A DNA stretch of 61,593 bases, filler included, from Hausera hauseri (Eukaryota): assembly GCA_046269625.1 (NCBI GenBank). It is 10 parts of 10 records of this genome, joined end to end, with 100 filler letters (N's around TTAATTAATTAA, not from the genome) between each part and the next. Parts side by side here need not be neighbours in the genome. Positions count along the whole stretch, not along the records: positions 39,690 to 43,795 come from JBJURY010758985.1; 9 more parts are not named here. One strand, given 5' to 3'. Below, piece by piece: positions 9,001 to 55,700 of the stretch. A program made the translations under genes and the position numbers. Under the pieces are notes generated by a model that did not search any database, was not told where the DNA came from, and saw only the letters and a list, made by a program, of their open reading frames with translations. Position 1 is the stretch's first letter. The number at the start of each line of letters is the position of its first letter.

Positions 9001-9710
9001 TCATGCCAGAATATTTTGTTCTAGGGGATGGGAATAGTAAAACCACGATCAAGGGAGTGTATTTTTTCTAAGGGGTCGGAAGAGTGAAACCGCGTTCAAG
9101 GCAGAATGCTTTGTTCAATGAAGTGGAATAGTGGAAGCACGATCACGGCAGAATGCTATGTTCTAGAGGGTGGGAATAGTGAAACCACAATTAAGCCAGA
9201 TTGCTTTTTTCTAAGTGGTGGGATTAGTAAAATCACGATGAACCCAGAATGCCTTGTTCTAGGGGATGGGAAGAATGAAACCACGATCAAGGCAGAATGC
9301 TTTGTTCCAGGGCGTGGGAATAGTGAATTCACAATCAAGCCAGAATGCTTTGATCTAGGAGGTGGGAATAGTGAAACCACGATCGAGCCAGAATGCTTTT
9401 TACAGTGGAGGGATTAGTGAAACCACGATCAAGGCAGAATGCTTTTTTTAGGGTGGAAATAGTAAAATCACGATCAAGCCATAATGCTTTGTTCTAGGGG
9501 GTGGGAATAGTAAAACCACGTTCAAGGCAGAATGCTTTCTTTTATGGGGTGGAATAGTGAAACCGCGATCAAGGCAGAATGCTGTGTTCTAGGGGGAAGG
9601 AATAGTGAAAGGACGATCAGAGCGGAATGCTTTGTTCTAGCGGTTGGGAGTAGTGAAACCACGTTCAAGGCGGAATGCTTTGTGCTAAGGGCGGGAATAT
9701 TGAAACCCAC
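1..9710. repeat. Satellite array with a 48-bp unit (consensus about GGTGGGAATAGTGAAACCACGATCAAGCCAGAATGCTTTGTTCTAGGG), roughly 200 diverged copies, open at the window start
   Basis: The unit is directly visible. The ORF track shows a 16-aa period (GGNSETTIKPECFVLG on +, IVVSLFPPPRTKHSGL on -), broken by frequent indels and stops. Confidence 0.97.
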
Positions 9711-9807
9711 TCTGCATCCTTAAGAAAAGTGCAACATTGGCACATTTTGTGCTATAGCACAACAGGAAAACGTCCTATGAAGTTGATTCATACACCATTC
9801 GACGCAG

Positions 9808-10148
9808 AATTAAATTTTGCACAAGGTAGAACATTCAAAAAGTTTTCTCGATAATATGAAAAATTTTCCCACGGTCCAGAAAATTTTCCCACGCTCGATG
9901 CTTTCTTCCCTGGGGGTTTGGCTTGGTGTGCTCCATTCTACCTACTCATATGCTTTACCAAAAGTTCAAAATTAAATCACCAGTTCATTGATCTATATAG
10001 AATTGCAATTAATACGATACCAAACTGGAAATCATGAGTTTCCATTATATAATATATGGCCGATTCGGATCAGACATAAAACGGGTTTGTCGATTGGTAT
10101 CAAAGTCCATTCATGTGAAAGACAATCGGAAAGAGAGCAAAGGGTTAA
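9808..10148. mobile_element. Non-autonomous DNA-transposon end flanking the satellite, with a piggyBac-like terminus (AAAGGG|TTAA at 10139-10148)
   Basis: 9808-9950 resembles 30085-30235 on another contig (ATTAAATT.TG.ACAAG.TAGAAC.TTCAAAAA...TTTTCTCGATAA...AAAAATTTTCCCACGCTC.ATGCTTTCT). The GGG-TTAA end fits the piggyBac pattern of a CCC-starting TIR plus TTAA target site. Confidence 0.5.
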
Positions 10149-12307: not shown

Positions 12308-12308
12308 T

Positions 12309-12437
12309 GTACTATGTAAACAAAGAAAAGTGGATACGGTATTCTTAATGTGCGGTCATCTCGTTGTTTGTCAAACGTGTTCCACCAAAGTAACCCAATA
12401 TCCAGAAGGTAAATGTGCTATAACGGAAATTGTATAG
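12309..12437 (+). pseudogene. C-terminal IAP-type RING finger (C3HC4) remnant, cut by the contig edge
   Basis: Translates as VLCKQRKVDTVFLMCGHLVVCQTCSTKVTQYPEGKCAITEIV*. This matches the IAP RING pattern CxxC...VFLPCGHLVxCxxC...CPxCR, with the last Cys pair degenerate (YPEG). Confidence 0.75.
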
Positions 12438-12664
12438 ATTTATTAAGAATGACTTCAATAACGGAACGAAACAGTGTCATGGGCTTCAATGACGTGGAGG
12501 TAATTTTAACTAGTATGTATCATTTTGATGAGACAATATGAATCATTGTGATATGAAACAATACTCACAAAGTAAATGTCTATTGTCAACAATGAAAACA
12601 AACCGGTATGAACAAATTTGATATAAATATGGATGCAATTTCATTTCACGTTTGTCTTTAAAAA

Positions 12665-13126
12665 ATGTCTTTGAAAAACAATTCAGCAGGTGTCAACTCA
12701 GCGAGTCTCTCAAAAAAGTCAAGGTACAGCGAATATTCGCTCAGAAATTCTCGGTTGTATAATGGATACAACGTCCATTATCTGCGCAACGCTATTCAAT
12801 TGCTATTGATGCAAACGCTCAAAATCAAACCGGTACAATATGGTCTATCGGTGAAAAAGATCAACGACGATGATTTGGATAAAATGGAAGAAACAAATAG
12901 AAAAATTGACAGTGATTTGGTGTTAAGTAAGGATATCCGAGATACACCGTCGATTTTTCTCAAAGGAAATATGGCAAAAATTGTCATTTCACATGGAGGA
13001 GAAACGGCAGCAGTTTTGCCATCAGAAGGAGCTAAAGGCCATCGAACATTGAATTTGAAATGATACAAGGATCTGCACGACGGTATATCACCAATATGGA
13101 AGCTGGGAACGTTTACGCTGATTTGA
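12665..13126 (+). pseudogene. Polinton-associated protein of unknown function (homolog of 42647-43087), with a premature TGA at 13061-13063
   Basis: Near-gapless alignment to the 42647 ORF. Reading through the TGA gives YKDLHDGISPIWKL. TATAAATA at 12622. Confidence 0.7.
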
Positions 13127-13379
13127 CTTACTTTGTTTTTGATTTTAGCTTATAATTAATATATTTTATTGATTTTGTACTTGATATTATTTCTCGTCAC
13201 ACGAAGCTAAATACATAAATGCATATAGATAAATTAAATGATAATAAAACAAAAGGCAAAAACAACGGAAAATATACATTGCTTATACACAAAAACACAG
13301 AACACAATGAATTGTCACAGTAGATTGGTTACTTGGATCTGTCTGTATCATCAAAACAGAATTCATGTGTATGCGTGTG

Positions 13380-26341: not shown

Positions 26342-27795
26342 ATGACAGAGAGCCAAAATAAAGAAGAATTGTATGCAACTGCCCAAAATAGTTTTAAGCG
26401 TTTGTTGGAAGTAGCTTTATCGAGGGAAATCAATAGTGGACAACCGTTAGATGATCCGGAAATTTTACATGCGCTACAGGAAATGACAAATGCGATCAAC
26501 GAACCCATAAATAATTGCTATCTGGTTACTCAGTTTATGCGTGATTGCTCTGAGGGAAATTACGAATCTGTGAAGGAACATATAATCAATGCCTGTGACG
26601 TAAATGAAGTAGGACATAATGGCGAAACTGCTCTCGTGTGTGCAATTAACGCAAACAGTTACAAAATTGTAGAGTTCTTATTAAAATCAGGTGCTGATAC
26701 AAATTTACGAACTGATAAAGTCGAATCAACTCCGTTAATGGATGCAGCGAATGTTGGATTTACAGACATCGTACGTATTTTACTGGAATATGGGGCTGAT
26801 GCTGATGTTCGATCACCTACAAACAATACAGCATTACACTATGCAGCTTGTGGAGGCTACTTAGATTGCTGCAAACTATTATTAGAATATTCTAGTAGTC
26901 GACAGAGTTTAATTGAGGAACAAAATGAAAACGGTCATACAGCACTTATGGAAACAGCAACAAGCGGTTTTTTTGAAGTGACAAAATTCCTCATAGAAAA
27001 CGGAGCACTAATCAATACACCCTCAGCCGAATTCAAAGAAACAGCATTAACCCTTGCTAGTTATAAGGGTTACAGTCATATTGTACAGTTTCTTTTGGAT
27101 GCAAGTGCGGATCATGAACATTATACCGATGAAATGCACACCGCCCTAATGGAAGTCTCAATGGAAAGTCGCATAGATACGGCTCGTGTCCTTCTGGATT
27201 ATGGCGCTCAGGTTAACATGATGGTGGACAGCTTCGAATCACCTTTGACAATAGCAGCATGTAGTGGTCATACAGATCTTGCAGCATTGCTTATCAGTTT
27301 TGGTGCAGATATTGAAAAGGTTAGTGATGAAAGTTATACGCCGTTGATGGAAGCTGCTGAAGAAGGTCATTTAGATATTGTTAAATCCTTAGTCTGTATG
27401 GGGGCGAATATTGAAGCTAAAAATGCTAGTTATGAAACAAGTTTGCATTTTGCCGTTGAAAATCGCCATGTTGAGGTGTGTCGGTATTTGCTTGAATGTA
27501 ATGCAAACATCAATCGTACGTCAGAAGGCGGAAGAACTGTACTAATGAAGGCTAGTCAAGCAGGCAATTTAGAGATTGTTGAACTCCTTGTTAAAGAGGT
27601 GCAAATGTCGATCAATTAACTGATCAAGGAGATCACAATGCTCTTAGTTTGGCATGTTCTAACGGACATTGCAAGGTCGTTGAATATTTGTTTAAAGTCG
27701 GTGCTGATCCAACAATTAAATTGAAAGATAACTGTACGGTTCTCATCGAATCATTACGAGGGGACAATTTGATGTTATCGACTTATTACTGCGGG
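26342..27795 (+). pseudogene. ANKHD1: ANKHD1/ANKRD17 (Mask) N-terminal ankyrin cluster; intronless, frameshifted near 27597, truncated
   Basis: Diagnostic strings DPEIL, NENGHTALME, EFKETALTLASYKG, TDEMHTALME, DSFESPLT and SEGGRTVLMKA. After the frameshift it continues GANVDQLTDQGDHNALSLACSNGH...GADPTIKLKDNCTVLIE. No second ankyrin block or KH domain. Confidence 0.9.
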
Positions 27796-28030
27796 ACACT
27801 ACGGTCTCATTTATTTCGGTAAAATCGAACTGTTGAAACTCAGTATTTAACCCTCTGTGAAACATGCCATTGAAAATGCGTTGATAAATCCTTTTCATTA
27901 CATCAAGAACAAAAAACTCCGTTTGGATTCCAACATGAATATTACGAAAAATTTACCCGACACTGCTAATGTGTTCAAGTTTCACCTTGAATTTCAACGA
28001 AACAAACTGAACGTTTATGACTGATTTCAG

Positions 28031-28085
28031 ACATTGAATGTTGCTTTACCCGGAGGTCCAAAATTTGAGCCTTTAATGAAGGACA
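28031..28085 (+). pseudogene. PRPF8: Short PRP8 fragment fused in frame to the BLM fragment
   Basis: LNVALPGGPKFEPLMKD, versus the highly conserved PRP8 ALNMAIPGGPKFEPLVRD. Preceded by an acceptor-like TGACTGATTTCAG. Confidence 0.8.
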
Positions 28086-28686
28086 CCAAATGGTTTATTC
28101 AAAGTTTCGATAGGCCGAATTTGCGTTCGGAAGTGCGACAAAAGGCGACAAAAGAATTAACCAAAGACATAATTGATTTGATTAATTCGAAGTTCTGTGG
28201 ACAGAGTAGAATTGTTTACTGTTTGTCATGGAAGGAGTGTGATCAAGTGGCACAAGAATTGAACAAATCTGGTTTGAAAGGAAAATCATATCATGCCTGT
28301 ATGGTTGATGGTGCACGAGTAAAAGTTCAACAAATGTGGATAAACGAGAAAGATTGCAAAATAGACGGCGCTACAATTCATCTGGCATGGGTACTGATAA
28401 AGCAGATGTGAGATTCCTTATCCATTACTCGATCCCGAAATCTGTCGAGGGATATAACCGGCTGGTTGCGTGTTGTACTATTACTGCCAGGATGTTATAC
28501 GAATGCGGCGCATGATTGAGAGCGATGAAACCGGAAATCTTGAAACGAAACACCAACACGAAATACAGTTGTATAAAAAGGCGTCATTCTGTGAGAATGC
28601 GTTAGACTGTCGACAAAATCCATTTTTAAGTCATTTCGGTGGACATTTTGACAAAGCGCTATTTGAAGTGGTCCGAAATTGCGAAT
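28077..28686 (+). pseudogene. BLM: RecQ/BLM helicase fragment (helicase C-terminal domain plus RecQ Zn-binding region), with a frameshift and motif VI deleted
   Basis: [79 protein letters not shown]...HFG. Confidence 0.88.
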
Positions 28687-28721
28687 GTAAGTCGATTGAT
28701 GATGTATTTATATTTTCTGTA

Positions 28722-28859
28722 AATGATATCAGTAGTTCAATTTGTTGGCACGTTTATAAGTTAGTCCAAAAGTCAGATAGGAAGTACTATAAAGCCGTGA
28801 AATGTTATTTGAGAGCATTGAAAATAGATGAAGATAACATTCAGATATTGCCTGATTTG
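28722..28859 (+). pseudogene. NAA15: TPR-region fragment of the NatA auxiliary subunit NAA15/16
   Basis: [46 protein letters not shown], versus recalled NAA15 [46 protein letters not shown]. Confidence 0.88.
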
Positions 28860-29984
28860 AGGGGAAACTCGGTCACCCTGCAATTTGGGGCCCGCCCAGC
28901 CAGGGCGGAAGTTCCGACCACCAACCCTGCGCCAGTCGTCGGACGGCGCCTTTCGCGTCGGCCCCACACCACGTCCCCAAGCGCACTACTTCTTCCCACT
29001 CTATTTTCTTTTTCCTCAATAATACCCATATTTACACAATCACTACACCCATAACGGCGCTATAATACCTCTCACCGGAACCCTACCATCTTTCTCAAGC
29101 CACACTTACCTCCACATACATTTCCGTATCCGTGGTGGCATCAACTCTTCGCCAACCATAGACACCACGGATAAAACTACCACGAAACCAATACCTGTTA
29201 TATTGCTCCAAAAACCCATTTCTACCCCTGCTAGCAACCTCCCATCAAATACATCTTTCGCTCCTTTCCTTAACTGCACCGAATTTTTTATTGACAACCA
29301 AGGTTCCAGCAAAACTTGGTTACAATTCCATCAGCTATGGCTGCAGGCAAATAATATCACTGACTCTTTAACAAAAGCACATAATCTTCTCTTCCTACTG
29401 CCTAATAGTATCAAAACAGGCATTCACAACATCATCGAAATCTTTAAACTTCCAGACCCATATTCCCAACTTTCTAACACAGTTCTTAAGATTACAGAAC
29501 CTTTCATGGACAGAAGCATACAACGTTTCTTCCACGACAACGTTAATAGGCACCCACCGGCCATCAGAATTCTTACGTACCTCCTTAGCACATCTCCATA
29601 CCCTCGGTGTCACTAAGGAACACAACCCGGATTTACTGCGCCACTACTTCCTCAACGCGTTACCCATCTAAATCCGGGCCCTACTTACCGTGGTGAAGGA
29701 CTCTACATCGCTTGAGAAATTGGCCGAATTAGCATACAGGACACACGATGTCCTACACGTAAATTCTCCACCAGTTGTTTCAGCAGCAGTTGCCGCTAAC
29801 AATAATATATCCATAGAACAAAAACTTAATCAGGTACGTGCTGAAAATATTGCACTGCATGCAACAATCAACAGTATCAATAATAAAGTAAACGAATTGT
29901 CTCTGTCCCGACGAGGGGATTTTGTCCCTTACCGCGCCCGTTCTGCGTCTAGAAACCGCTCACCATCGCCTGCGCATTCGTCGA
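28858..29984 (+). mobile_element. Ty3/Gypsy LTR retrotransposon 5' part (GC-rich LTR-like sequence plus decayed gag)
   Basis: Abrupt GC-rich segment starting with TG. gag-like W...NNITDSLTK...PDPYSQL and IRALLTVVKDSTSLEKLAELA, closely matching the gag at about 51330-51410. Confidence 0.78.
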
Positions 29985-30235: not shown

Positions 30236-30435
30236 TCCAGCGTGAATATTTCCGTATTGCTCCCACTTTCCTCCATTTCGTTAAAGGATACTTCCTCGAA
30301 ATTTTCCGTTTTTATAAATTTTCGTACTTTTTCCTGTGTCATTTTATCCATCGATATATCTCCGTGTCCCCTTCTTCCTGATCCGTCTATATTGTTTGAT
30401 ATACTACTTCTGTTATACATAACGATATTTTCGTA

Positions 30436-31490
30436 GCCTGAATCTATTATAGTGCCCCGATTTGCTCCACTTCTGTCGAGGCTCTGCCTTTTGGGGAAAC
30501 TGACTCTTGATCGGATTCTGTTTCTTCCTGCTGTATGTTTGCGACATCCCCCGTCTTCTGTTCAGATTATCCCCGTACCTTCTTTTAACTCTGTACGTAT
30601 CCCACCCTGGTTCTCTTCTCCTCTCCAGCCTGGTGTAGCACTCCTTTTGGGTATGTCCCTTATAGTGACATCTTGCACAGCTAAGGTTAATACAATTTCG
30701 TCTGATGTGCCCTAGCTGACCACATCCGTAGCACCGTATTGGTTTTCTTTCGGGACACCGCCAGCTTATGTGTCCCTCTTTTCCGCATCCAAAGCATTTA
30801 ATCGGTCTTTGTGTGGTGCACGTTGTGCTTGTATGTCCTTCCTTCTAGCACGTCCAACACTTTAATCTACTATTTTGCATTCTAGTAGAGTTAATGTTGA
30901 TTCTAGGAACGGGTTTCCTGATTTTTTGTGCTGCCACTTCTTGGTAGCTTCTTCTACCGATCCCCGGATACTCCTTGACCGTGTTGACTTCTTCTGTCTT
31001 AATCTTCACCTCGTGTATCTTCCGTATTTTCTCCTTTATTGTTTCCGCGTCTTGTTTTTCACTGAGGCATATTTCTCTTCTCATCTCTCTGTTGTTACAA
31101 CATTGGAACAATAGTTCCTCTTTTAGAGCCTCGCGTGAAAGATTGTGTTTTATGATTTTACCCAGCAGTTTCTCGATTGCCTCGAAGTAAGCCTCCGGTT
31201 CTGCCCCATTCATTCTGTACTCGAGCGTCTCTTTTAGATCTTCGCATACCGAAAGCCTTCCGTAGTCGGTTTTGATATCCCGTAATCCTTGCATCTACGG
31301 CCTCGTATCTTTCTAGTGCTTCTTCCTCCAAGAGACATTCAGCCATGATCTCTCGCTTTGCCGCCGGGATGTTCATGTATTTAAAGAATTTTTCACATCC
31401 TTTAATGAACCTTTCCACGTCGTCTCCTTTCCTGAATTTGTTGGGCAACAATTGGTTCGCTAAAATGTCCAATGTGGCGTAAGTCACCAT
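30436..31490 (-). mobile_element. gag: Retrotransposon gag pseudogene with four tandem CCHC zinc knuckles
   Basis: KFRKGDDVERFI..CEKFF N-terminus, then CWTC*KEGHTSTTC, CFGCGKEGHISWRC, CYGCGQLGHIRRNC and CARCHYKGHTQKEC in one frame (about 30635-30860). Confidence 0.85.
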
Positions 31491-31639
31491 CTAGGCCGCG
31501 GACGCGTCTGCCTCGTCCCCGCCCCCTGGTATGTCCGCTAAAGCAGAATTTGATCGTTTGTAATCACTCATTGCAAAGTTAACACCAGTGGTTGAAAATT
31601 TTATTGAGTCTCAAAATACTCATTTGGAAACAAATTTCC

Positions 31640-35390: not shown

Positions 35391-38300
35391 TTATCTATCA
35401 TTTGGATCTAAAAATAGCTCTCTCGTAGTTGTTAGGAAGGAAATTTCCAATACTCGGACTTTTGAATAATACTTTCTTAGATAAGTACTTGGTTCGTTTG
35501 GATAAGTATTGTACAGATCGAATTGTTGTTTATATTCATAACCCAATGGTATTTCACAACCCGGATTTGGTTGTCTTTGTGCGATATAACAGTATTTCAC
35601 AGGAGGGTTTCATTTATTTATTGTACTAATTGGATAGAAATTTGTCTGTCTCTTGGCAATTTTACTTTATTCTTAATCTAAATACATCGATTTTTGATGT
35701 CTTTAGAGATTTCGACAATGTTGTAATCTAGAATTCGCTTGTGGGTCGGTTTTTCGGGTCATGTTGTCTATCTTGGTTTGATTTACTTTATTGCTTTGAG
35801 GCATTTTTACTCAAAATTCTGTGATTATGTAGGCTTGAGCTACGGGCAGATTATAATAAAACATTTGAAATTTGTATTTATATGTCCGTCAAAAATCTAA
35901 TTCGCAAAATTTTACGTGGTTTCAAACGGGTTTTCTTGCTTTGAACCATGCGCATGGTTTGTTCCAATCCATGTCTTAGACTTTTATCGACTGGAAATTC
36001 TGTATATCATTTCGTCTCTCTGCATGTTATTGTTTCTCTGTTCAGTATGTATGACGGTGGGATAATTCCGTAGATATCTTCTTCTAAGTCCATTGTCCAT
36101 TGAGTCTTTACTTTTGGCATATATGAAGCAAGGAGTGATAGAGAAAGGACTGTCTGTACATATGATATCGGTCTGGTTATTATTGATGACTTGTTTATTG
36201 CTTTACTTCTACTATTCGAATTTTCATTATTCCTGCGTAGGTAATAACCTTTATTCGGCCTTATTTCCGTTTTAACAACTCTTCGTATTGATACGACTTC
36301 TTTTCCATTTTTGTTAATATAAACTGTAGTCGGCGTGGTTCTGATAACCTCATAAAATCCTCTTCCAGCTCGAGTGAGCTTCAAAGATGTGCCTTTCTTG
36401 GCTACTGGGTAATGTACATAAACCCATTTTCCTTTTTCTGGGTTATGTGGTTTAGCCTTCTTGTCGTATTGCTTTTTAAATTGTTCTTGATACCCTTCAG
36501 ACAATTCTTTTGCTACTTTCAAACACTTTTGTAAACTTGTCTATAACAGTTCCACAAAATTTTGTTCTAAATCGTCTGTTTTCGCTGTATACGGTATCAT
36601 TCCTAAGTCCGTCGGTAATATGGTTTCTCTGCCGTACATCATAAAGAATGGAGTGAATACAGTCGCACGATGTGTGTGTAGTATTAATAGCGAATTGCGT
36701 CCCTTCTAAAAATTAATCCAAATCTTTCTGGTTTTTCGCGACTACTGTTGATAAAATTCGCATGAGTGTTGCGTTCATCGTTCGACCATTCCGTTACACT
36801 GATCGTGATAAGCTGTCGCGGTTAATCGTTCAATTTCAAATATTTTGATGATTTTATAGAATAATTCACTCGTAAAATTTCTTCCTCTCTATGTTAGGAT
36901 CTGTTCAGGAGGTCCATATCTAGATATAATTTTTCTTACTACGGCTTCTGCAGGAGTTTCAGCTTTTTGATCCATTAATGCCATTAGTTCGACAAAATGA
37001 GTTAGCCGGTCTATACATGTCAGAATGTATTTATTACCTATATGAGTTGTAGGTAAAGGCCCTACAATATCCATGGATATCGCTTGTATCGGTCTGCCTG
37101 ATATGTTTATCGGTTTGAGTTCAGCAATGTATTTTTTCGCTTTTCTATGTTTGGTTGCGTATGCTTCACAAGTACTTACCCAATTTTTCACACCGATGTA
37201 TATGCTCTGCCATTAATATTTATTTATCCAAGACATGTGTCTAGCTAAGTATGAGTCATGTTCGGCCATTAGCACTTCCGTCCGTAATCCTTTTGGTATG
37301 ACTACTAATTTTCTTCCTTTTTGTCCGTAATATAACTCTTTTTAGTGGCTTTTGTTGCCTGTTACACAATATTTATGACCGTGTCTTTGCAAATTTTTCC
37401 GTAGTTGGTGACCTTTTGGCTTTATATCATTTCCTACAAACTCGATAATTCGTTGTACAACTTTTTCTTTCGTTTATTCAGTTGAGATTTTAATTGCTTT
37501 ATCCAATATTAGGGCTCGTTACCTACCTACCAGTTTTTCGAGCTGAATTTTTCTCATGACAGTAATCGCACTTGTTTTAGTTTTGAGTCTTGATAGTGCA
37601 TATGCATCGACATAATTGTTTCTGGGCTTATATTGAAATTCAATATTATATCGTGAAATCTCTTCGATCCATCTGTTGAGTCTACATGTTGGGTTATTTG
37701 CTCTACCCTTTAAGGCTGTAACAGCTTTGTAATCGGTAACGACTATAATCTTCTGTCCGTAGATATAAACGTTAAAGTGTCGTAAAGCTTCTTTCACTGC
37801 TAGCGTTTCTAATTCCGTAACAGAATAGTTCTTCTCGGCTTTCTTTAGTGATCGTCCTCTGTAAGCGATCGGATGCTCCAGCTCTTCATGTTCTCTTTTC
37901 TGAGCTAACTCGTACCCAATGCCCTCTTTACTGGCGTCAGTTTTGATTATAAACGGTAGGTTAAAATCATGATATCTTAAAACAGGTTCGCTAGTTAAGA
38001 ATTTCTTCATTTCATCAAAGGCTTTTTGTTCAACGTCGGTTCATTTCCATTTAGTTCCTTTTTTAAGTAAACGGTACAAGGGCGCATTTATTTTCGAATT
38101 GTCTGGTACATATGTGGCATAATAACCACATAAACCAATCAATTTCTTAATTCTTTTTGGTTCTGAGGTTCAATACATTCTGATATTTTGTTTAACAATG
38201 ACTTATCAGGTTTTGATCCTCCTGCTTCAACTGTATGTCCAAGATAGGTTGCTGCATTTTGAGCCCATTTACATTTCTTAGGATTCAGTTTCAATCCTGC

Positions 38301-39460
38301 TTGCTCCACTCTCATATGCGTGTCCTCGATATCCTTTAAGTGCTCTTCTTCCGTTTTTGATGCGATTCAAGTACGCAAATGCGTGTTCCCGTCCCATCAA
38401 CATTTTGTTCATTATTCGTGTAAAGATGGCTGGTCAGGTAGTTATCCCAAATGGCATAACGTTAAATTTGTATACCCCGTCGTGTGTTTTAAATGCAGTT
38501 TTATACCGGTCTTCATCCTCTATTTCCATTTGCCAATATCCAGATTGAAAATCTTGTGTGTTAAACCATTTTGCTCCGTCGAGTCTATTCAGGACTTCTT
38601 TTATTGATGGTAATGGGAAGGATTCCTTCATCATAAGGGTGTTTAACGCTCGGTAATCGATACAAGGTCGATGTTTTGTAGTACCTTTCTTTTTAACCAT
38701 AAGTATGGGATAGTACCAAGATCTATAGCTCGGCCTAATTACGTAAGCCTTAAGCATACTTTCCACTTCCATTGTTATCTCGGGTCTTACAAGTGCGGGA
38801 AAGATACCATTTGACATCCTTTGATCTTCTAGATCAATTTCATCATTCGAACCAGGCTTTTTCTTAAGTGGAATTGTTAATCTCAAGGCTTTAGCTCTAC
38901 AAATGTCTTCATCGTCTTTAGTGATGACTGAGCTATAACGACAAAGTAGTTCGTAAAACGACGGTATGATTCCGGTGAGAATTTAGTTTTGACGTGAGGT
39001 GGAAATGCAGCACATTTGTAAAGTTTTTCTTTAATAGTTATCGACTATACTCTATACGTGTGACACAAGGTGGTATTGGCGTACAATTTGATTGGGGTTG
39101 GCGCGTTATTAGCTATTCTGATCGGCACATGATACGTTGACACTCATTAATACATTACTGAGTACAATGCTTGGGTTTAATGATTCTTTTGGCTCAAAAT
39201 ATACCGGCTGGTCGTCATCTTGACGGATCTGAGCATGTATTAACATTTCAGTTTTAGGTAGAATGTTTTCATCCACTGGAGTCCATACTTCTCCAACTTT
39301 TCTATCTTTGATATTTTTAACTCCTTTTATCGGACCAAGTTCTATTAATTTTCGCACATGAAAGTCTATTGATACATTTGGTAGTTGTCTCAACAGATCA
39401 TATCCTAATACATCATCCGTTAACTATTCCATTACTCAGAATTCATAGTGAAAAGATTGT
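35391..39460 (-). mobile_element. pol: Decayed Ty3/Gypsy pol (RT, RNase H, integrase) with a 3' extension
   Basis: RT: RPCIDYRALN, GYWQM, KTAF..MPFG. RNase H: TDASKEGIG, NYSVTELE, VTDYKA. Integrase: ISMDIVGPLP, YGPPEQILT. The RT-RH-IN order is Gypsy-type. Confidence 0.95.
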
Positions 39461-39689: not shown

Positions 39690-40457
39690 GAAATTCTTAA
39701 TAAATGGCGTCGTACTTATTTTCGAAATACGTACGTAAGCACCGATGTTATATTTTGGGCGTTTAATTACCTCTTATCCTCGTGTTTGGTTTTTATAAAG
39801 CCACATGTCCAAATCGTCGACTACGTCAACCGGGCGCATTTCGTTGATTTCACGGTGTGTAGAATGATTGTATGCATGAATAATATCCGGCAGTACATCT
39901 GCCAGTGTTTGTTGCCTTGCTTCATAAAGAATTTGTTTAGACTACCGCGCTATGTTCAATTAAATTGTTCAAAGAGTGCAGCCTTGTATTAAAAAAACAC
40001 CGAGTAGTGGTTTACGCCAAAACGTTTCAAGACCGCTGTAACGTGGGCGTTGTAGAATTCCTTACCGAAATCCGTTTATAAATGCTTCGGCTGTTTTTGT
40101 TTTTGTTGTATTAGTTTTTAAACAGCGTCGGCAATCTCTACTATATTTAGATTTGGCGAAAATTGCACGTACAAAACAACTAAACACATCAATACATGTC
40201 ATCACGTACCGATACCCATGGTTGATGCTGGCGTACGGAATCATTTCCATCAGATCCATTTGCCATATATTATTTACACCGGCAGCACGGTATGAAAGAG
40301 TTGAAAACCGCATTCTTATCGGTTTGTTTAGACTGTATGCTAACTGTGTCTCGAGCCAACGTTGGATCTGTTGCCGAGTCTGTTTGACAGTCTTTGCCAG
40401 TTTGTCGACGCTAGTATGCCCAACGGGATGACGTGGGTAGAACCACACATCGCCCAT
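39690..40457 (-). pseudogene. int: Polinton rve-type integrase, frameshifted
   Basis: IWQMDLMEM..YASINHGYRYVMTCIDVFS, followed by DFGKEFYN, GVNHYS and KAALFEQFN. Confidence 0.92.
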
Positions 40458-40607
40458 CGTTGTTGCCGTCGATAGTGTCGGTTTTGCTGATTGCATTACA
40501 ACAATTAGAACGAAGAGTAAATGAAAGATTGGGTAAACTGGAACAGCAAGATGAAAACCATGCACCCATATTGCCGAATAATTATATACTTACCATCATC
40601 GTTTATA

Positions 40608-40937
40608 CTATGATGTTGTTGCAGAACCAATGAGTTCACCTAGTAATGACGTGACAACCGGTAGAATTGCACCAAGGAATCCGCCGTCTTGCTGGTCCAT
40701 AACCTCTCGTTTCAGTCGTTTACTACGGGCGTTGACAAGGCCAATGAGTCGTTTTCGATACTTTAGTAAATTCCACTTTCCACTACCAATGTCAACGTGA
40801 CCCACAACGATATTTTACAAAATTTCCATCAAATCGTTTACTACAAATTATGGGAATGATCATACCATGTTTCGCTTATGTCTCGTAGATGCCTTGAGCA
40901 AAGCAATAAAGTACTACTGATTACGTTTGGGTCGCAT
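40608..40937 (-). pseudogene. Polinton small basic protein with a C-terminal GGFL amphipathic helix (adenovirus protein-X-like)
   Basis: Ends QQDGGFLGAILPVVTSLLGELIG and lies between the ATPase and the integrase. Confidence 0.7.
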
Positions 40938-41199
40938 TCTTTTTTGTGGACGTATTGATATTGATGAGACGTAGTTGTTTATAACCGTTGGCAGTGTGAC
41001 AGTAATTTGCGTCTAGTTTCTGCTGCTGTTTTTGTTGTTCGAAGCATAGAATTGATTAATCGCTTGACTGTAACGGCGGTTCTTTTTGATGCACGTTCCT
41101 TGCCGGGCACCCGCTTGGTAGGTTTACGTTTAATAATTGTTTTTCGGAAATTCTTTATTGTATCACTATCGTGTCGTCGATTTTTGAATTTGTTTATAG

Positions 41200-41815
41200 A
41201 CACATACACTTTCTGATTGAAAATGTTTGGTAGTACACGCATGTAATCGGGACACTGTTGTGTAAAATCAATGAACAAGTGGCTCGGTCGTAGCATCATG
41301 ACATGCATCTATCAAACAGGCTCGGTTGTGAGGAAATGCTTGTCGTGCAACATAGTCAGTGATAGTCTGATCACGGGGATTTTTGAACAACACCACATAG
41401 CGTGCGTTTAGATTTCTTGTCGATGCTCTCCGTCCTGATGGAACATGTTTTTTGTAATGAAAATAACTGTCACACCACAGTGTTGTGCAATCTTGATGAA
41501 CAGGTTGTAGAAGTCCGATTGTTTCGTGGCTTCCTGAAATAAATCGTCAATGAGAATAACGTCACCGTTGCATAATCGTTCAGATCAATTCTCATCAAAC
41601 CCATCAATTACCGTCATCGATTTCAGTATACAAAATTCCCGATGTGTCAAACCGGATTCACCATAGTCACCAACATCCTGGTGCCAGTAAATGTGGTTGT
41701 ACCGCGGTGAATGGAACACGTCACCGTAGTTCTGCAATAGTTTACACACAAAGTGCGTTTTGCCACTTCCACTGGGGCCTACAATCTGGAAAATTTCAGC
41801 ATTCTGCAGCTTCAT
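41200..41815 (-). pseudogene. Polinton DNA-packaging ATPase (A32/FtsK-like)
   Basis: Walker A IVGPSGSGKT, Walker B VILIDDL, then VTVIFIT, NARYVVLFKNPRD and HLFIDFTQQCPDYMR. Contains stops and frameshifts. Confidence 0.93.
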
Positions 41816-41911
41816 CTAAATAGTAATAATAATACAACATTTTCTCAACACATGATTTGTTTTTAATCGTGTTACACGCATATAAATAGCTATAGTATAA
41901 ACACTGTTTCC

Positions 41912-42360
41912 ATAACGTTAGCTAATATCAACTATCACGGACATGTTACTAAGTGTGGCATTAACACACTACCGTTAAATCAATGGAAACTGAGGCAGTA
42001 TGTCCTCAAGTGTCCACTGGATTTTACATTCATCGTATTTCAATCGGGAAAGTGTCGTATTATGGGTTGTCTCAAACCTATCACAGCTGATAAACTGCTC
42101 CCATCCGGAATTGTCATTGATCAAATTCAATCAATAACGGTAACGACTCAGTTAGACTACCAAACAATCAATCTGTACAAATTAGCAATGGCCACTGAAT
42201 GTACGTATGAACCCGAACTCTTTCCTGCATTGACTGACATTGTTTTGCCCACTATGTGTGAATGTGTTTAGCAGAAGAAAAATTATTGTACTCGGTATTT
42301 GAACAGTGGATCATGAATCGATTATTAATCAAATTAAAAACCACATAAATGTTTTAGTGA
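41912..42360 (+). pseudogene. TATA-binding-protein-like gene (two TBP repeats) inside the Polinton-type contig
   Basis: TLANINY...FIVFQSGKCRIMG (repeat 1); IQSITVTTQL..TINLYKLA...YEPELFPAL, frameshift, CVNVFSRRKIIVLG (repeat 2). Compare TBP IFSSGKMVCTG, YEPELFPGL and IFVSGKVVLTG. The start appears mutated to ATA. Confidence 0.8.
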
Positions 42361-42428
42361 AGCAAAATAATGTACATTGCACAACAAACTATAAATACCA
42401 TTCCCATGCTTATTTAGACATTACTGCC

Positions 42429-43087
42429 ATGGAAGAAGACGAAGACAAAAAGATTCTACTCAAATATGATTATGGTTGTGCGAATGATGAAAGTTCAGAT
42501 TGGTCGTGGTTGTTTGGCCACAAAAAAACAATTCTAATGTCAAATATCTGGAAACGAAAACAGAACCTGTCTAAAAATTAGAAAAACCTTCTAATGGCTA
42601 TTGTCTGGAATTTGCAGCAAAACCGACGGTAAAAAGAGAAACGGCCATGATTGAAATACGTAAACGAAAATCAAAACCGTCGCACCAAACATGGACATTT
42701 TTACCGAAACGAATTTTTCGCAAGTATGAAATGAATTTTCTGAAAACGCCCGTTCGGATTTCATTGAATGATTCCGTATCTCTATGTGAACTCAAGTACA
42801 GCTATCGTGTAAAACGGCTTTTGGGTGAAAATTTGGATAAACTTTCTGATGCTCTACGTCAATTAAGCGTGGATTTAAAGTTGAACGAAATGACTGTGCA
42901 ACAGCAATCTGTCAATTTTCCAGCGCAGAAAACAAAATTTTTTGATTTTATCGAGCGCGAAATGCGTAATGTACCCTTTGATGATTTAAAGTGTCGACTG
43001 AATATAGAATTTCAAGGTTACAAGGAAAAATCCGGTATCAAAAGCACGAATTGGCGTTTAGCTGAAGCACATTTTAATTTTCAATAA
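42429..43087 (+). CDS. Polinton-associated protein of unknown function (homolog of 12665-13126); 5' part disrupted, 42647-43087 open
   Basis: 146-aa ORF, TATAAATA at 42390, AATAAA overlapping the stop codon; aligns to the contig 2 ORF. Confidence 0.65.
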
Positions 43088-43179
43088 ATTTTATTGTTTC
43101 GTTTTACCATTCTTCTTCTTTCATCAACCCCATTAATGAGTATAAATATACGTGTAATTTTAATATTGGTATAAGAATA

Positions 43180-43640
43180 ATGATGATGAATGATGTAAAG
43201 ATTATCTTAACAAATGTAAATGCCATTGTACCGAGACATGTTACAACAGCAGTGCAGGCTACGATGTGTTTTGCAATATCAATACGACAATTTCGGAAAG
43301 CACAATCAAATGCACAACGAGTGGGATTCGATTGGTGATTTCATCCCGTTACGACGGCCAACTTTTATCGAAAAGCGGACTGGCAAAACTCAAACTGACG
43401 GTTGTGGGCGGCGATGTCATTGATTCAGACTTTCGTAGTGAAATTAAGGTGTTACTGGAAAAGCAATCCGGGGAACCGTGTGCTTTTTCGAAAGGCAGTG
43501 CAAACGCACAAATCGTTTTTCTTCGCTGTGAAGAGGCAGAATTCAGTGTAATGTCACCTGAACAATAGGAGTTGTTTTGTGTCAATAAAGCAACAACAAT
43601 GTGAAATGAACGCAAAGAATTTGGCTTTGGTGACATGAAA
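43180..43640 (+). pseudogene. dut: Trimeric dUTPase, decayed
   Basis: Motifs SAGYDV, KSGLA, DVIDSDFRSEI, ANAQIVF and a degenerate motif V (RKEFGFG); has a frameshift and stops. Confidence 0.9.
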
Positions 43641-43737
43641 AAACCACCTATGTTTATTGATTGTGATAATAATAATAATAATAGTTAGTTGTTTTGTTTG
43701 TGTTATAAACAAAAAATGATTTTGTACATGATAAATA

Positions 43738-43795
43738 ATGGCGACAGGATTTATAGATATTGAAGCTTTCCAAGATGATAATGCCCGGTACATAA
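43738..43795 (+). CDS. Start of a possible DEDD-type exonuclease ORF, cut by the contig end
   Basis: MATGFIDIEAFQDDNARYI contains an hhDxE motif; only 19 codons are visible. Confidence 0.35.
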
Positions 43796-50789: not shown

Positions 50790-51072
50790 TGCTTTGTTCC
50801 ATGGTATGACTTTGTTCAATACCGCTTTGTTCAAAACCCCTTTGTTCAAAACCCCTTTGTTCAAAACCCCTTTGTTCAGGGTGGGAAATCGGCGCCATAT
50901 TGCTTTGTTCCGCCAAAATTTAAACAAAAAGGTGGTGGAGCCAACTTCTTCCCTGATTGGTCAGTTTTCCTTACACATTTTCTTTCCCCCGATGACGTGG
51001 CCGCTTCCCATTCGCCAGTTTTCCTTCCCCCGATGACGTGGCCGCTTCCCATTCGCCAGTTTTCCTTCCCCG
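50790..51072. repeat. Subterminal-like repeats after polB: 15-bp CTTTGTTCAAAACCC x4 and a duplicated unit of about 42 bp containing TGACGT
   Basis: Directly visible; also contains ATTGG (CCAAT box). The position is compatible with a Polinton terminal repeat. Confidence 0.6.
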
Positions 51073-51084
51073 GGGGGGGGTAGT

Positions 51085-54000
51085 GGCTCGAAGTCATCAC
51101 ATCCTACTACTAACGCTGACCCCTACAACTCCCTCTACTCTGCAATACTTAAGCTTACTGAACCTTCTATAGACTTAATAATCCAAAAATACTTCAATGA
51201 CAACACCTTGGGCAATACCAAACTCTCAGATTTTCTTCGAACTTCTTTATCGCAACTGAGTACGCTAGGCGTAACACAATCAACCAGTTCCGATGTCTTA
51301 AGACGCTATTTTCTGAAATCCTTGTCCAAGGAAATTCGAGCCCTTCTAACAGTCGTTGAGGACAGTGCATCACTGGAAAAATTGGCACAGTTGGCTGACA
51401 AAAGCTTTGATATACTACACAGTCAAAATCAACCGACAATTGCAGCAGCACTGAAAACACCAACAATACACAATCAAAACACAATAAAAAACATTTATAA
51501 TCAGATTCAATCATTACACATAGTGAATGTCGCACAACGACAAGCAATTACAGCCATCACAGATAAGCGCAATCAAATGACAGTGCCAGGCAAATGTTTT
51601 TCTGGGAATCAATAGCTTCCCACAAGATCGAGTCGTTCTTCGAGCAACAGTTCTCCTGTGCGCGGTTTGACCTGCTTTTTTCACTCCAAATATAAGCAGA
51701 ATGCAAATAAATGCTGCATAGGATGCAGATTTTACAATCAAAGCTTGATATCAAATGACGACGTCTTCATTTATCACAATACATTTCGCAACAATGCCTG
51801 CAAAAGCATACAAAGCTGTAAATTTTACAATTCTTCGGCACAGTCACACTCAACAACGCATTCAAAAAACTAACCACGCCACCAGAAGTCACGGCAACTT
51901 TTGGTTAAGGCTCAGACGCTTCATTCAACAGTGGTAATGCATTCTTTGCTGTCTTTACACTGCAGGCTACCATTACGTCTAAAAATTCTTCCGTCTCTTT
52001 CCTCATTGATACTGGAGCTTTAGTCCCACTTCTTCCTCTTTCTATGAATCGCAAAAATCTTTTTCAATCAGTAAACCCTTATTTACAACCAATGATGAAC
52101 AGTTGCGCACCATTGTCACAGCAAATCTTTCCTTTTCCCTATCAGGTTTCTCTGAATCTTTTTCTTGAAAATTTACAATAGCCAATGTTCAAAGTCCAAT
52201 CCTTAGATCAGACTTTCTTTCACATTACAATTTAGTGGTCAGTTGTAGACAGCGTCGTTTGATTAGAAGTCCTTCCTCCAAAATTTTAACAATTTCATCG
52301 GTTTTACATTCAATTTTACCAGCGTGGATTCAGTTATAAGACCGAATATCAAATCAATTTTAAAAAATAAAAATTTTGTAAATAATCTTGTACATTATGA
52401 TACCTCGAATACCTATATTTCGAGCGTTGAGAGTAATGAGTCTGCCTCTTCCGGCAACATCATCTCAAAAACCACCGTACCCAATGATCAAGTGTCCACG
52501 TCATCATCATCCTTCATCCAACTCTCATCCGATCTTCAAGCATTTGTCACTGCTCAATGCTTAAGAACTCTCAAAAAAAGATTCATTCTTTAAGCCTCGC
52601 TCCAACACATTTCACCACATTGTTACCTCTCATCAACGTCCAATTCGGAAAAAAGTGCGACCTCTTTTACCACGTCGCAAAAAAGCCGTTGCTAAAAATT
52701 TTCAGACTTTAGAGAACGCTGGCATCATCAGACGTTCCAAACCACCATGGGCATCATTATTACACGTCGTGCCCAAGAAAGACGGCACTTTCAGACCTTG
52801 TGGTAACTATCGCCAACGAAACCCCATTATAATCATGGACGCATATCCATTGCCTCTAATCAACGACATCTTGCACAGACTGCATGGTAAAACAATTTTT
52901 TCGTCCATCGATCTTCATAAGGCATATAACCAAATTCCTGTTGCCCGGCTAACATACCGAAAACGGCTGTAATAATACCATTCGGTCTATTCAAATATGT
53001 CTATATGCCTTTTGGGCTTGGCAGTTCCTCACAGACTTTCCAAAGGCACATTGATACAGTTCTTGCTGGACTAGACTTTGCTTTCCCATATATAGACTAC
53101 ATTCTTATCGCTTCGTCATCCCCCAAACAGCATGCGGAACACTTGCGCATAATTTTCCAGCGCTTGCACCAGAACAACCTTGAAGTAAACTTTGCGAAAT
53201 GCTGTTTTTTTAACATAAAATTAACTTTCTTGGACACGTTATCACCCAATCTGGCCATTCACTCCAACAAGATCGCATCACTCAACTCAAAAATGTCCAT
53301 CTACCACGCACATCAACAGAAATGCGCTCCTTCCTCCGAACACTTCACTTCGTGCACAAGTATGTGCCTCACTGTTTAACACTTACGGCACCATTCGCCT
53401 CACTCAGCTCCGGTACGAAGAAACAGCTTATTCACTGGACTGCTAACTTAGTCAATTCTTTCGAACACCACAAGGATAGTTTAAAAACTGTTGAAATCCT
53501 TGCATACCCTGATCCACATTTGGAACTTTTATTAACAACTGACGCCTCTACCACAGCAGCAGGCGCAATACTGCATCAACTGAAGAACGGTTCCCATGAA
53601 CCCCTTGAATTCTTCTCGCGAAAATTCTCGAAAGTAGAACAACTCTACTCGACGTTCGACAGGGAACTTCTCGCAATGGTCCTAGCATTAAAGCATTTCA
53701 AATGTCTTTTAATTTCACGCACATTCATCATTCAAACGGACCACAAGCCTCTACTTTATATTCTCACTATGAAATCTCCATCTCCACGTCAAGAGAGACA
53801 GATTTCATATCTTTCAACCTTCGCGTTCGAAATAAAACATATTTTAGGGGTTGACAATTTAGTGGCTGATTTTTTGTCGCGCTCCGTCGACTCTATCACA
53901 TTTGCACCAATTTTTGATAGTAAGTAACTCCAACGGAATTTGCCAGACGAGTCTATTCCCTCCGCCTTCAAATCTTACAAAATCGTTGATGGAGTAGCTT

Positions 54001-55700
54001 TGAACACCTCTAATCCTGGGTTTACTAAAATTATTCTATCACCTTCTTTGCAAAAAACCGCTTTCACCAATATCCATTCTTTGCATCATCCAGGATCCAA
54101 AGATACTTATCGCCTTCTTAAACGCCAAGTTATATGGCCATCAATGAAAGCAGATATGCAGGATTAAATTAGGGAGTGTGTGGAATTCCAGAAGTTTAAA
54201 GTAGCCAAACATTTCAAGCCGCCACTCTATCATTTTCCCTGCACATCACCTTTCGACACCGTCCACATCGACATAGTCGGACCTCTTACACCTGACAACG
54301 GCCATCAATTCATTCTCACAATGATGGATCGTGCTTCTAGATGGCTAGAAGCCATTCCGCTTCGCTCAACGAACAATGACATCATTGTAGATGTCTTCAT
54401 ACGCACATAGCTCAGCAGATTCGGCTTACCTAAATACATAATCAGTGATCAAGGCCCCCAATTTGAGTCGAATTTTTTTAAATCATTAGTAAATCGACTG
54501 GGGATCAAGCATATTCATACAACAGCATATTATCTTCAGTCAAATGGGCTACTGGAGCGTTTTCATCGTACTACGAAAATCTCCCTTAAAATTCTAGCTG
54601 ACACCAATCAACACTGGATAAACCTTCTTCTTACGTTCTACTGGGATGGCGAAACACCCCATTTACAACCACTGGCTGTTCTCCGTCCGAGGCACTCTTT
54701 GGTACACCAGTGCGTGCAGTGTTCGAGTTGGCGAAATGTGATGAAGCACCCACTAACGAAACAATCCGGGCAGCGCAGGAGCACTTTGTTGCGTTGAATA
54801 GCGATTCTTTCTGCAGAATTCTAAATCACGACAAAGCATACATTCCAGACACTCTATATACAGCCAAATTTGTCTAGCTAAAGAATCCAGTGTCGCATGG
54901 GTTCCAACCTCAGTACGTTGGGCCATTCAAGTGAATTCGTATGAACTCACATACTGCTACAATCCTCAAAAACGGAAAAGAATGCTCGGTGCATATCACT
55001 AACATCAAACCAGCATTCTTTATCGATGACAACCCTGATTATTCTGTTCCGCTTCGCAGAAATTCCTTTCTTGATGTTTTTATCAAACCTTTTAATCCAC
55101 CTCTCAACAAACTTCTCTTTGACTTTTTATCTCAGCCTTCACTAAGCCTTCAATTCCGTCCTAATACTTCTTCTCATCCTTCGTCAAACGCACAATGTTC
55201 TAATTCTTCTTCATTTTACAATAACAGCTCGCTTAATACCTTTCCTCAATCTTCCTCAGACCTTCAATCTTTCAAACCTACTTTACCTTTCTCATCTTTG
55301 TTTTCAAGTTATTTTCCTTCACAGTCTTCATTCTCTTCGACGTACACAACGTCAAACACTAAATCCAAAGATCTAACAAATCTTCCGCCGCTACATACCT
55401 CTCTGCAACCTAACACAACGCACACAAACAAAACAAGCAAAGTAACATTCAACACGTACAGTAGGGGAAAAATCATTAGAAAATATTCAACGTTCTGTCC
55501 GCACTAAGACTGACTGAAATAAACATTTTTTTCTTGGTGCCTTTCATTTCCTTTCTGCTTTGCTTTTATAGTTTTCAGTTCAGCGACGGGGAGAGGTGAT
55601 GTGGTGCCCCGGGCGTGGTGGCGGCGGCCCGGCCTTTGTTCTGTTGTGCCGTGTGTTGGGATATGTTCTCTCTTGTCCGGAATTCGGCAGCTCTGAAGCA
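51085..55700 (+). mobile_element. Decayed, near-complete Ty3/Gypsy element (gag, protease, RT, RNase H, integrase, PPT and start of the 3' LTR)
   Basis: gag with a C..H..Y...A.KC...C knuckle; FLIDTGA; PWASLLHVVPKKDG, MPFGL, YIDY; TTDAS, YSTFDRELLA; VHIDIVGPL, SDQGPQFES. Purine tract GGGGAGAGGTGA followed by TG at about 55600. Confidence 0.95.

Follow-up and report, generated by a model that had tools for sequence, protein, structure and literature searches.

The window analysed here is a 61,593-nt stretch of DNA from Hausera hauseri (GenBank assembly GCA_046269625.1) in which small contigs are chained via N44-TTAATTAATTAA-N44 linkers, and the feature under study is exactly one of these contigs (JBJURY010758985.1; 4,106 nt; positions 39690..43795). 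This contig is a decayed fragment of a Polinton/Maverick element. Its genes form two rows: the minus strand carries a packaging ATPase gene, a pX-like gene and an rve integrase gene, and the plus strand carries a gene for a TATA-binding protein (TBP)-like protein, an open reading frame (ORF), a dUTPase gene and the start of an exonuclease-like gene. A preliminary description, made from the sequence alone, had given the same layout. The three minus-strand genes and the first three plus-strand genes were found to be present, while the exonuclease was only weakly recovered; the three TBP peptides quoted in that description all occur in the six-frame translation. The features are as follows, with L and P numbers denoting related loci and proteins.

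~40493-39690, minus: decayed rve (retroviral-type) integrase gene with 5 stops, its 3′ part lost at the contig end; Pfam rve E 6e-6; 37% to the intact integrase of L019
40074..40080, minus: TATAAAC within the integrase coding sequence, with no ATG inside 80 nt; probably incidental
40456..40569, minus: small conserved ORF with an MG start, overlapping the integrase start; 55% over 29 amino acids (aa) to L028:3410-3661, E 2.6e-6
40601..40607, minus: TATAAAC box, 38 nt 5′ of the ATG of this small ORF
40623..40937, minus: pX-like or core-protein-like gene with 4 stops; 44% to L024:908-1231
40977..40983, minus: TATAAAC box, 46 nt 5′ of the pX-like ATG
40990..41165, minus: short Lys/Arg-rich frame with no ATG, perhaps equivalent, by position, to the small basic gene that relatives have at the same place
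41192..41198, minus: TATAAAC box at the ATPase gene end, 5′ of the basic frame; at the same place in L006, L012, L019 and L028
41178..41817, minus: A32/FtsK-type packaging ATPase gene with stop(s) and a frameshift; 49% to the L019 ATPase, which matches Pox_A32 at E 4.8e-6
41881..41888, plus: canonical TATAAATA, 31 nt 5′ of the TBP-like start position
41896..41902, plus: TATAAAC, 16 nt 5′ of the TBP-like start; none at that place in 27 relatives
41912..~42362, plus: broken gene for a two-repeat TBP-like protein of about 150 aa (mini-TBP); Pfam TBP; 75-78% to the intact P0001/P0002, the P0002 model having the TBP fold
42390..42397, plus: canonical TATAAATA, 39 nt 5′ of the ATG of the next gene
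42429..43087, plus: predicted OB-fold single-stranded DNA-binding protein (SSB) of the T7 gp2.5/Enc34/African swine fever virus (ASFV) CP312R type, from homology with cluster C1 and a model; frame break near 42575 (frameshift or intron)
43141..43148, plus: canonical TATAAATA, 39 nt 5′ of the dUTPase ATG
43180..43568, plus: dUTPase gene, split across two frames; Pfam E 2.5e-15
43704..43710, plus: TATAAAC box, 34 nt 5′ of the exonuclease-like ATG
43738..43795, plus: probable DEDD-type exonuclease-like gene, first 19 codons up to the contig end; a weak match to cluster C4 of the relatives (5/14 identities, pairwise E 0.002)

The window copy of the element is non-functional, and its decay, already noted in the preliminary description, is evident in both rows. 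Stops are present in the ATPase, the pX-like gene and the integrase, and the box upstream of the ATPase has degenerated here. In the TBP-like gene, the start position used by its relatives lacks an ATG, the frame shifts near 42233 and a stop occurs at 42300. The MG start of the small ORF at 40456..40569 is presumably of the myristoylation type, and the gene at 40623..40937 is putatively pX-like. The Lys/Arg-rich frame gave no similarity match to the basic ORFs of two relatives, and the 19-codon exonuclease-like start gave no significant profile match in the printed output. The family to which the window copy belongs is very high in copy number and diverse in the public run X1 (33,051 contigs across the whole contig); another run, X2, has 1,735.

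The mini-TBP family

The TBP piece of the window matches Pfam TBP at E 1.6e-7 with 31.5 bits (gathering threshold 22.9), and the TBP of L014 matches in two stretches (63.7 bits). With the uninterrupted first piece of the gene as the query, 11 homologues were found among 12 candidates, the best at 78%. A profile search over 2,505 candidates gave 587 proteins; lengths of 131-193 aa were recorded for the best 120, and the matches beyond these 120 may include cellular TBPs. Longer matches number two only (267-275 aa). At E<=1e-30, 51 clusters were obtained among 1.84 billion representatives. A metagenome scan provided 35 TBP-bearing loci. In 13 of them, TBP is accompanied by a gene for an ATPase, an integrase, a protease or a putative hexon; the remaining loci are contigs of 1-5 kb, many with accessory neighbours only. 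One more locus, L036, was recovered via a hexon alignment, not via TBP, and carries a TBP gene together with ATPase, integrase, protease and PolB-like genes. Copies linked to packaging, integrase or putative capsid genes are what the preliminary description had proposed to look for. IMG/VR, when scanned with the TBP piece and with alignments of TBP, hexon and ATPase, gave no relatives.

L036, a contig of a metagenome-assembled genome (MAG) in GTDB, is a near-complete TBP-bearing element, and both L036 and L037 are eukaryotic Polinton contigs binned into bacterial MAGs. P0210 (219 aa), a TBP-like protein of the family type, contains two units in tandem. Branching beside the family is a TBP-like subgroup of greater distance (P0196, P0219, P0222, P0227, P0234, P0251 and P0255).

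The Polinton identity of these elements was examined gene by gene. The integrase has an rve domain in the window and both rve and Chromo, the combination expected for a Polinton integrase, in L019 and L036. The A32-type packaging ATPase is found in the window and in relatives including L036, and an adenovirus-type protease is found in L014 and L036, outside the window contig. The PolB-like ORFs of L019 and L036 (880-1070 aa) match 19 IMG/VR loci and, in Pfam, Endonuclease_7 only; from their motifs they are putatively the protein-primed PolB of Polintons. The ORFs of about 410 aa (putative hexon) and about 350 aa of the relatives stand in the order expected for double- and single-jelly-roll capsid genes. 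The labels PolB, hexon, penton, pX-like and cupiennin-like are putative, having been given from size, order and motifs, and library searches gave no match in their support. The window contig includes no element ends, where terminal inverted repeats and a 6-bp target-site duplication would lie. PHROGs gave nothing for 8 proteins, and the putative hexon had no match in a phage collection. The relatives L014, L019 and L036 share with Polintons/Mavericks and adintoviruses (PMC8502044) the rve-chromo integrase, the A32 ATPase and the adenain protease, and also have putative PolB, penton, cupiennin-like and hexon genes.

The TBP-like gene is under purifying selection: its dN/dS values are 0.15-0.49 (52 of 276 pairs, those with dS 0.05-1.5), and those of the ATPase are 0.02-0.14 (3 pairs). 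A quick tree, built from 59 rows, joins the window piece to P0001/P0002 inside the family (support 96) and separates the family from 12 cellular TBPs (SH-aLRT 99); no TBP-related factor (TRF) or giant-virus TBP was knowingly among the rows, and P0214 is a family member by its sequence. The identity of a family protein to cellular TBPs is only 18-28%. These data bear on whether the gene is a retrocopy or pseudogene of a host TBP or TRF that landed in one element. Its broken state in the window copy would fit such an origin; however, intact homologues in 35 + 1 other loci, purifying selection, the separate clade and the low identity to cellular TBPs refute it, and its probability is negligible. 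The element itself encodes this two-repeat homologue of TBP, as the preliminary description had supposed, and the gene is conserved within a Polinton clade. That description had named the lack of a TBP fold, and a one-off host pseudogene absent from other copies, as outcomes that would count against it; what was found is a TBP fold match and a family in other elements.

The AlphaFold2 model of the intact relative P0002 (pLDDT 91.8) has 44 PDB matches at E<=1e-3; all those listed are TBP chains, the best at E 2e-8. Residues 1-148 align to full TBP cores with Z 12.9 and a root-mean-square deviation of 2.9 A over 147 residues. According to this model, the mini-TBP has the two-repeat TBP saddle fold. 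Its helices occur only at 84-90 and 133-147, besides a 3-residue turn at 61-63; repeat 1 is thus modelled without both of its helices, whereas canonical cellular TBP has two alpha-helices per repeat.

Residue conservation was examined in 161 family members. In the second repeat, F101, P102, F117 and the stirrup residues E97/E99 are conserved at 91-100%. The acidic stirrup, the TFIIB-binding feature of cellular TBP, is kept at the sequence level (E97 in 96%, E99 in 99%). The first repeat retains N4 and F40, but the Val, Val and Thr of cellular TBP are replaced in it by Asn6, Arg46 and Met48 (94-100%). As for the intercalating phenylalanines, F40, F101 and F117 are conserved at 99-100%, and the fourth position may be the near-invariant F20 or P25.

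The TATAAAC box and a candidate late-promoter factor

The three TATAAATA boxes at 41881, 42390 and 43141 lie 31, 39 and 39 nt 5′ of the starts of the TBP-like, SSB and dUTPase genes, in agreement with the preliminary description. Their number compares with 0.3 expected in the contig, and 3 of 500 simulations reached 3. TATAAATA is an ordinary host-type TATAWAWR box. By eye, genes with a canonical TATA often have GATTGG upstream and TCATT/TCATAATT right before the ATG.

Another box, TATAAAC(A), was first recognised by inspecting the upstream regions of the TBP-bearing loci, and its six sites in the window contig had been overlooked in the preliminary description. Six sites compare with 0.84 expected, and none of 500 simulations reached this number; the rest of the window (about 57 kb) has eight. 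Three of the six lie 34-46 nt before an ATG; the others are found 5′ of the basic frame, within the integrase and 16 nt before TBP, one at each place. When 9 of the 35 loci were removed as redundant, the 26 de-duplicated loci (89.7 kb) contained TATAAACA 63 times versus 19.5+-3.8 expected (simulation maximum 28 in 100 runs), while TATAAAG, TATAAAT and TATAAAA were not enriched there. The TATAAAC sites peak 30-50 nt 5′ of the ATG, at about 35 nt before packaging/virion genes, and 72 of 74 sites in nine long loci are on the strand of the gene block. With most of the boxes 33-45 nt from the ATG, 5′ leaders would be about 5-15 nt long.

A clear contrast is seen among gene classes when TATAAAC is counted within -110..-15 of the start: the box precedes 9/9 ATPase, 6/6 putative hexon and 6/6 cupiennin-like genes, versus 0/27 TBP, 1/13 SSB core and 0/1 PolB-like genes. 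Ile-Asn codons take the form TATAAAC in 16 of 23 cases if they lie no more than 110 nt from a gene start, and in 1 of 49 elsewhere; the 23 cases represent about five homologous positions and are not 23 independent events. A TATAAAC that overlaps the upstream gene is therefore held at the DNA level. These two results touch on a version of the function close to that of the preliminary description, in which the mini-TBP would be a general booster, independent of TBP-associated factors (TAFs), of both TATAAATA and TATAAAC where host TBP is limiting, with no early/late switch. Such a booster would need neither the sharp split between classes nor a C kept even within coding sequence. TATAAA is, on the other hand, common to both boxes, the window copy has both of them 5′ of TBP, and Epstein-Barr virus (EBV) BcRF1 binds TATA and TATT alike in vitro, according to the accessible part of PMC4893493. 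We regard the booster as unlikely.

For comparison, a control set of starts was taken from 29 Polinton/Polinton-like virus loci that were found by PolB or integrase and had no TBP match in the available locus DNA. The box occurs at -55..-28 in 37/158 genes of 27 TBP-bearing loci versus 1/287 genes of 22 de-duplicated control loci, while canonical boxes are alike in both sets (25/158 and 34/287, respectively). TATAAAC before packaging/virion genes is the distinctive signal of this clade, and its contrast with the control shows an association of TBP and TATAAAC, not a cause. A decoy function may be considered here: the mini-TBP would occupy canonical TATA boxes or titrate TFIIB and thus damp host transcription or the element's own early transcription, and TATAAAC would be recognised by some factor of the host, or else by host TBP when template numbers have become high. 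A kept acidic stirrup with both first-repeat helices missing resembles a dominant-negative design. In addition, host TBP can bind a box with C at position 7 via a Hoogsteen pair (PMC4457894, accessible part), and the PDB entry 1qn3, a 'C(-25) variant', is among the listed matches. Nevertheless, the Asn/Arg/Met that the first repeat almost invariably has on its DNA-facing strands suggest that specificity was changed and not lost, and positioned TATAAAC, that single gene apart, is absent in the 22 loci without a TBP match; we give the decoy only a small chance.

A reading that accommodates these observations, and that we consider fairly probable from the sequences, is that the mini-TBP serves as the element's own late-promoter factor acting via the TATAAAC boxes. 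Of the two repeats of TBP, the first is the one that reads the 3′ half of TATA. Repeat 1 is changed in the mini-TBP and the 3′ half is changed in the box, so the altered half of the protein would face the altered half of the box. In TBP, one Phe pair inserts at T1-A2 and the second pair at step 7/8 (PMC1935006, accessible part). C at position 7 inactivates the TR element of yeast HIS3 (PMC4457894, accessible part), and it lies outside the consensus YWTAWADN. The switch would proceed in four steps. First, host TFIID and RNA polymerase II (Pol II) would transcribe the early genes for mini-TBP, SSB and dUTPase, many of which have a canonical TATA. Second, the mini-TBP would bind TATAAAC, the conserved second repeat reading the 5′ TATA and the remodelled, polar first repeat accepting a C at position 7, a base that is disfavoured there by host TBP. 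Third, the acidic stirrup that it has kept would allow it to recruit TFIIB and Pol II of the host; a first repeat without helices would let it function free of the usual TFIIA/TAF contacts. Fourth, the packaging and capsid genes would be turned on only once the mini-TBP has accumulated. The preliminary description had proposed a basal factor that could drive the element's own promoters: the element-encoded TBP is supported, and TATAAATA as its target is not. A strict TATAWAWR precedes only 11 of 27 TBP genes, and TATAAAC is the more likely target.

That low count and several further points weigh against the late-promoter reading. The marking of virion and other genes is partial (integrase 2/7, pX-like 4/7, penton-like 4/7, protease 3/5, exonuclease 3/6), TATAAAC also stands before many non-structural accessory ORFs, and the window copy itself has one 16 nt 5′ of TBP. 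The 'late' class of the marked genes is presumed from gene identity alone, and the capsid and PolB labels lack library matches: the PolB-like ORFs of L019/L036 have no PDB match, the putative capsid ORFs of about 410 and 350 aa have no Pfam match, and the former, the putative hexon, has no PHROG or PDB match. The 22 IMG/VR control loci belong to other clades and many are partial contigs; TBP and TATAAAC may thus be no more than two characters that a single clade happens to have, and no TBP-less member of the TATAAAC clade was found that would break this tie. The numbers of genes counted are also not independent of one another. On the protein side, the first-repeat residues were mapped by alignment end points, a profile alignment and yeast numbering, and it is uncertain which residue corresponds to the fourth intercalating Phe. 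Finally, the viral TBPs (vTBPs) of herpesviruses need five viral partners, making up a six-protein complex (vPIC), and no shared unknown partner set was found among the ORF clusters of the TBP loci.

Accessory genes and the rest of the window

The ORF downstream of TBP, for which the preliminary description had offered no function, belongs to a cluster present in 16 of the 35 loci. The model of a relative (pLDDT 93) has as its best chains the Enc34 SSB, a DUF2815 phage protein and T7 gp2.5 (Z 7.2-7.5), followed by ASFV CP312R (6.7). The ORF at 42429-43087 is thus a predicted ssDNA-binding protein of the T7 gp2.5 type; this call was made because the top structural rows are all of one type, with Z values below 8 being middling. 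A protein atlas gave no usable match for it. In L003:2374-3085, L004:1140-1841, L015:1103-1838 and L033:791-1503, the SSB gene appears by eye to be split by an AT-rich GT..AG intron joining in frame; exon 1 corresponds to cluster C3, and a canonical TATA precedes 4/4 of these genes. The intron points to nuclear Pol II transcription with splicing.

The four plus-strand genes had been described as a TATA-driven cassette, and as a conserved unit this did not hold. The neighbours and orientation of TBP vary among the 35 loci, and no ORF of >=70 aa there matches the dUTPase, so the four-gene cassette is particular to the window lineage. A C4 exonuclease-type gene is found near TBP in 8 of the 35 loci. 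Other accessory genes include a dual-specificity phosphatase (L004:4008-4319, E 6e-20) and a leucine-rich repeat protein with a TATAAAC box 35 nt upstream (L030:1307-1845).

A second Polinton fragment is found on another contig of the window (12308-17636), with the following features.

12309-12434: RING fragment, E 2.6e-9
12662-13063: second, divergent SSB homologue, profile E 5e-11, with TATAAATA 43 nt upstream
~13400-16030, minus: decayed PolB-like gene
17433-17597: homologue of an unknown ORF that flanks TBP in 5 loci

Elsewhere, positions 26273-29054 contain an intronless ankyrin-repeat ORF (448 aa) followed by fused RecQ-like and tetratricopeptide-repeat gene fragments, and resemble a chimeric captured-gene or retrocopy tract. 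A long low-complexity tandem repeat of 9/12 nt with strong skew occupies 18500-25300, and a G-skewed tract lies at the window start (1-10000). Decayed Ty3/Gypsy-like gag-pol fragments, recognised by ORF translations and integrase similarity, occur at 30400-31500, 36000-39420 and 51000-55500.

Known systems and implications

The nearest functional parallel is the vTBP-TATT system of beta- and gammaherpesviruses, namely EBV BcRF1, ORF24 of Kaposi's sarcoma-associated herpesvirus and murine gammaherpesvirus 68, and UL87 of human cytomegalovirus. According to the accessible parts of PMC4893493 and PMC12529657, it likewise combines a viral protein of the TBP fold, whose DNA face is more polar, with a TATA box altered in one base before structural genes. 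By analogy, the mini-TBP system likely works like this one, and it is not a member of it. The herpesvirus proteins are large and multidomain, whereas the mini-TBP is a bare saddle of about 150 aa; the acidic stirrup is kept in the mini-TBP and absent from herpesvirus ORF24; and the variant base is at position 7 in TATAAAC and at position 4 in TATT. In BFVD, the herpes proteins match the mini-TBP only at E 3e-3 to 7e-3, as a different family.

With cellular TBPs (eukaryotic TBP/TRF and archaeal; PF00352), the mini-TBP shares the saddle, the second repeat and the YEPELFP stirrup, as well as three intercalating Phe positions out of four. It differs in being about 30 aa shorter, in the helix-less repeat 1 of the model, in the polar repeat-1 substitutions and in forming its own clade. 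It is thus a member of the TBP fold family and not a canonical TBP. Its best BFVD matches and atlas neighbours are the TBP-fold proteins of giant viruses (Nucleocytoviricota) and mirusviruses; the named matches have 8-17% identity, with up to 19% in unnamed rows, and are mostly longer than the mini-TBP. Nucleocytoviricota are large and have their own RNA polymerase, and mirusviruses are also large.

The preliminary description had placed viral TBP homologues mainly in large DNA viruses. A TBP-like gene in a Polinton-like virus is, however, not wholly unreported: a 'TBP' label for a MELD-virus/Polinton-like element is glossed in the Fig. 5 legend of Starrett et al. 2021 (PMC8502044, accessible part; preprint 10.1101/697771), and the labels SSDBP, dUTPase and IAP appear in their Fig. 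S2. The accessible text of that paper, which excludes the figures and part of the supplement, gives no TBP function or promoter motif, and its Fig. S2 text has no TBP label. No mention of TBP was found in the accessible parts of PMC11161782, 10.64898/2026.06.19.733378, 10.64898/2026.10.13.758929, PMC11131425 and PMC12220804, and no motif or TBP text in those of the PMC10748475 supplements. In the literature covered, which lies outside subscription journals, no study of a Polinton TBP, no TATAAAC promoter and no TBP-TATAAAC link was located.

On the available sequences, the balance tips slightly towards the broader view that this Polinton clade, independently of herpesviruses, evolved a one-protein late switch consisting of a minimal altered-specificity TBP, a private TATAAAC box, and host TFIIB and Pol II. 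If this is true, it would be a second origin of the strategy that combines a viral TBP with a variant TATA, and the smallest natural orthogonal TBP-promoter pair known. As a natural altered-specificity TBP, the protein could then find use as an orthogonal part for transcription and help to examine how the 3′ half of TATA is read by TBP. A dedicated factor with a defined box is directly testable, since the small size of the protein suits it to binding assays and structure determination, and since the box allows late genes and their start sites to be predicted for every clade member. The finding bears on the timing of Polinton capsid genes and on whether particles form without a helper virus: if the late-promoter reading is true, these elements would run an autonomous, staged virion programme in the nucleus.

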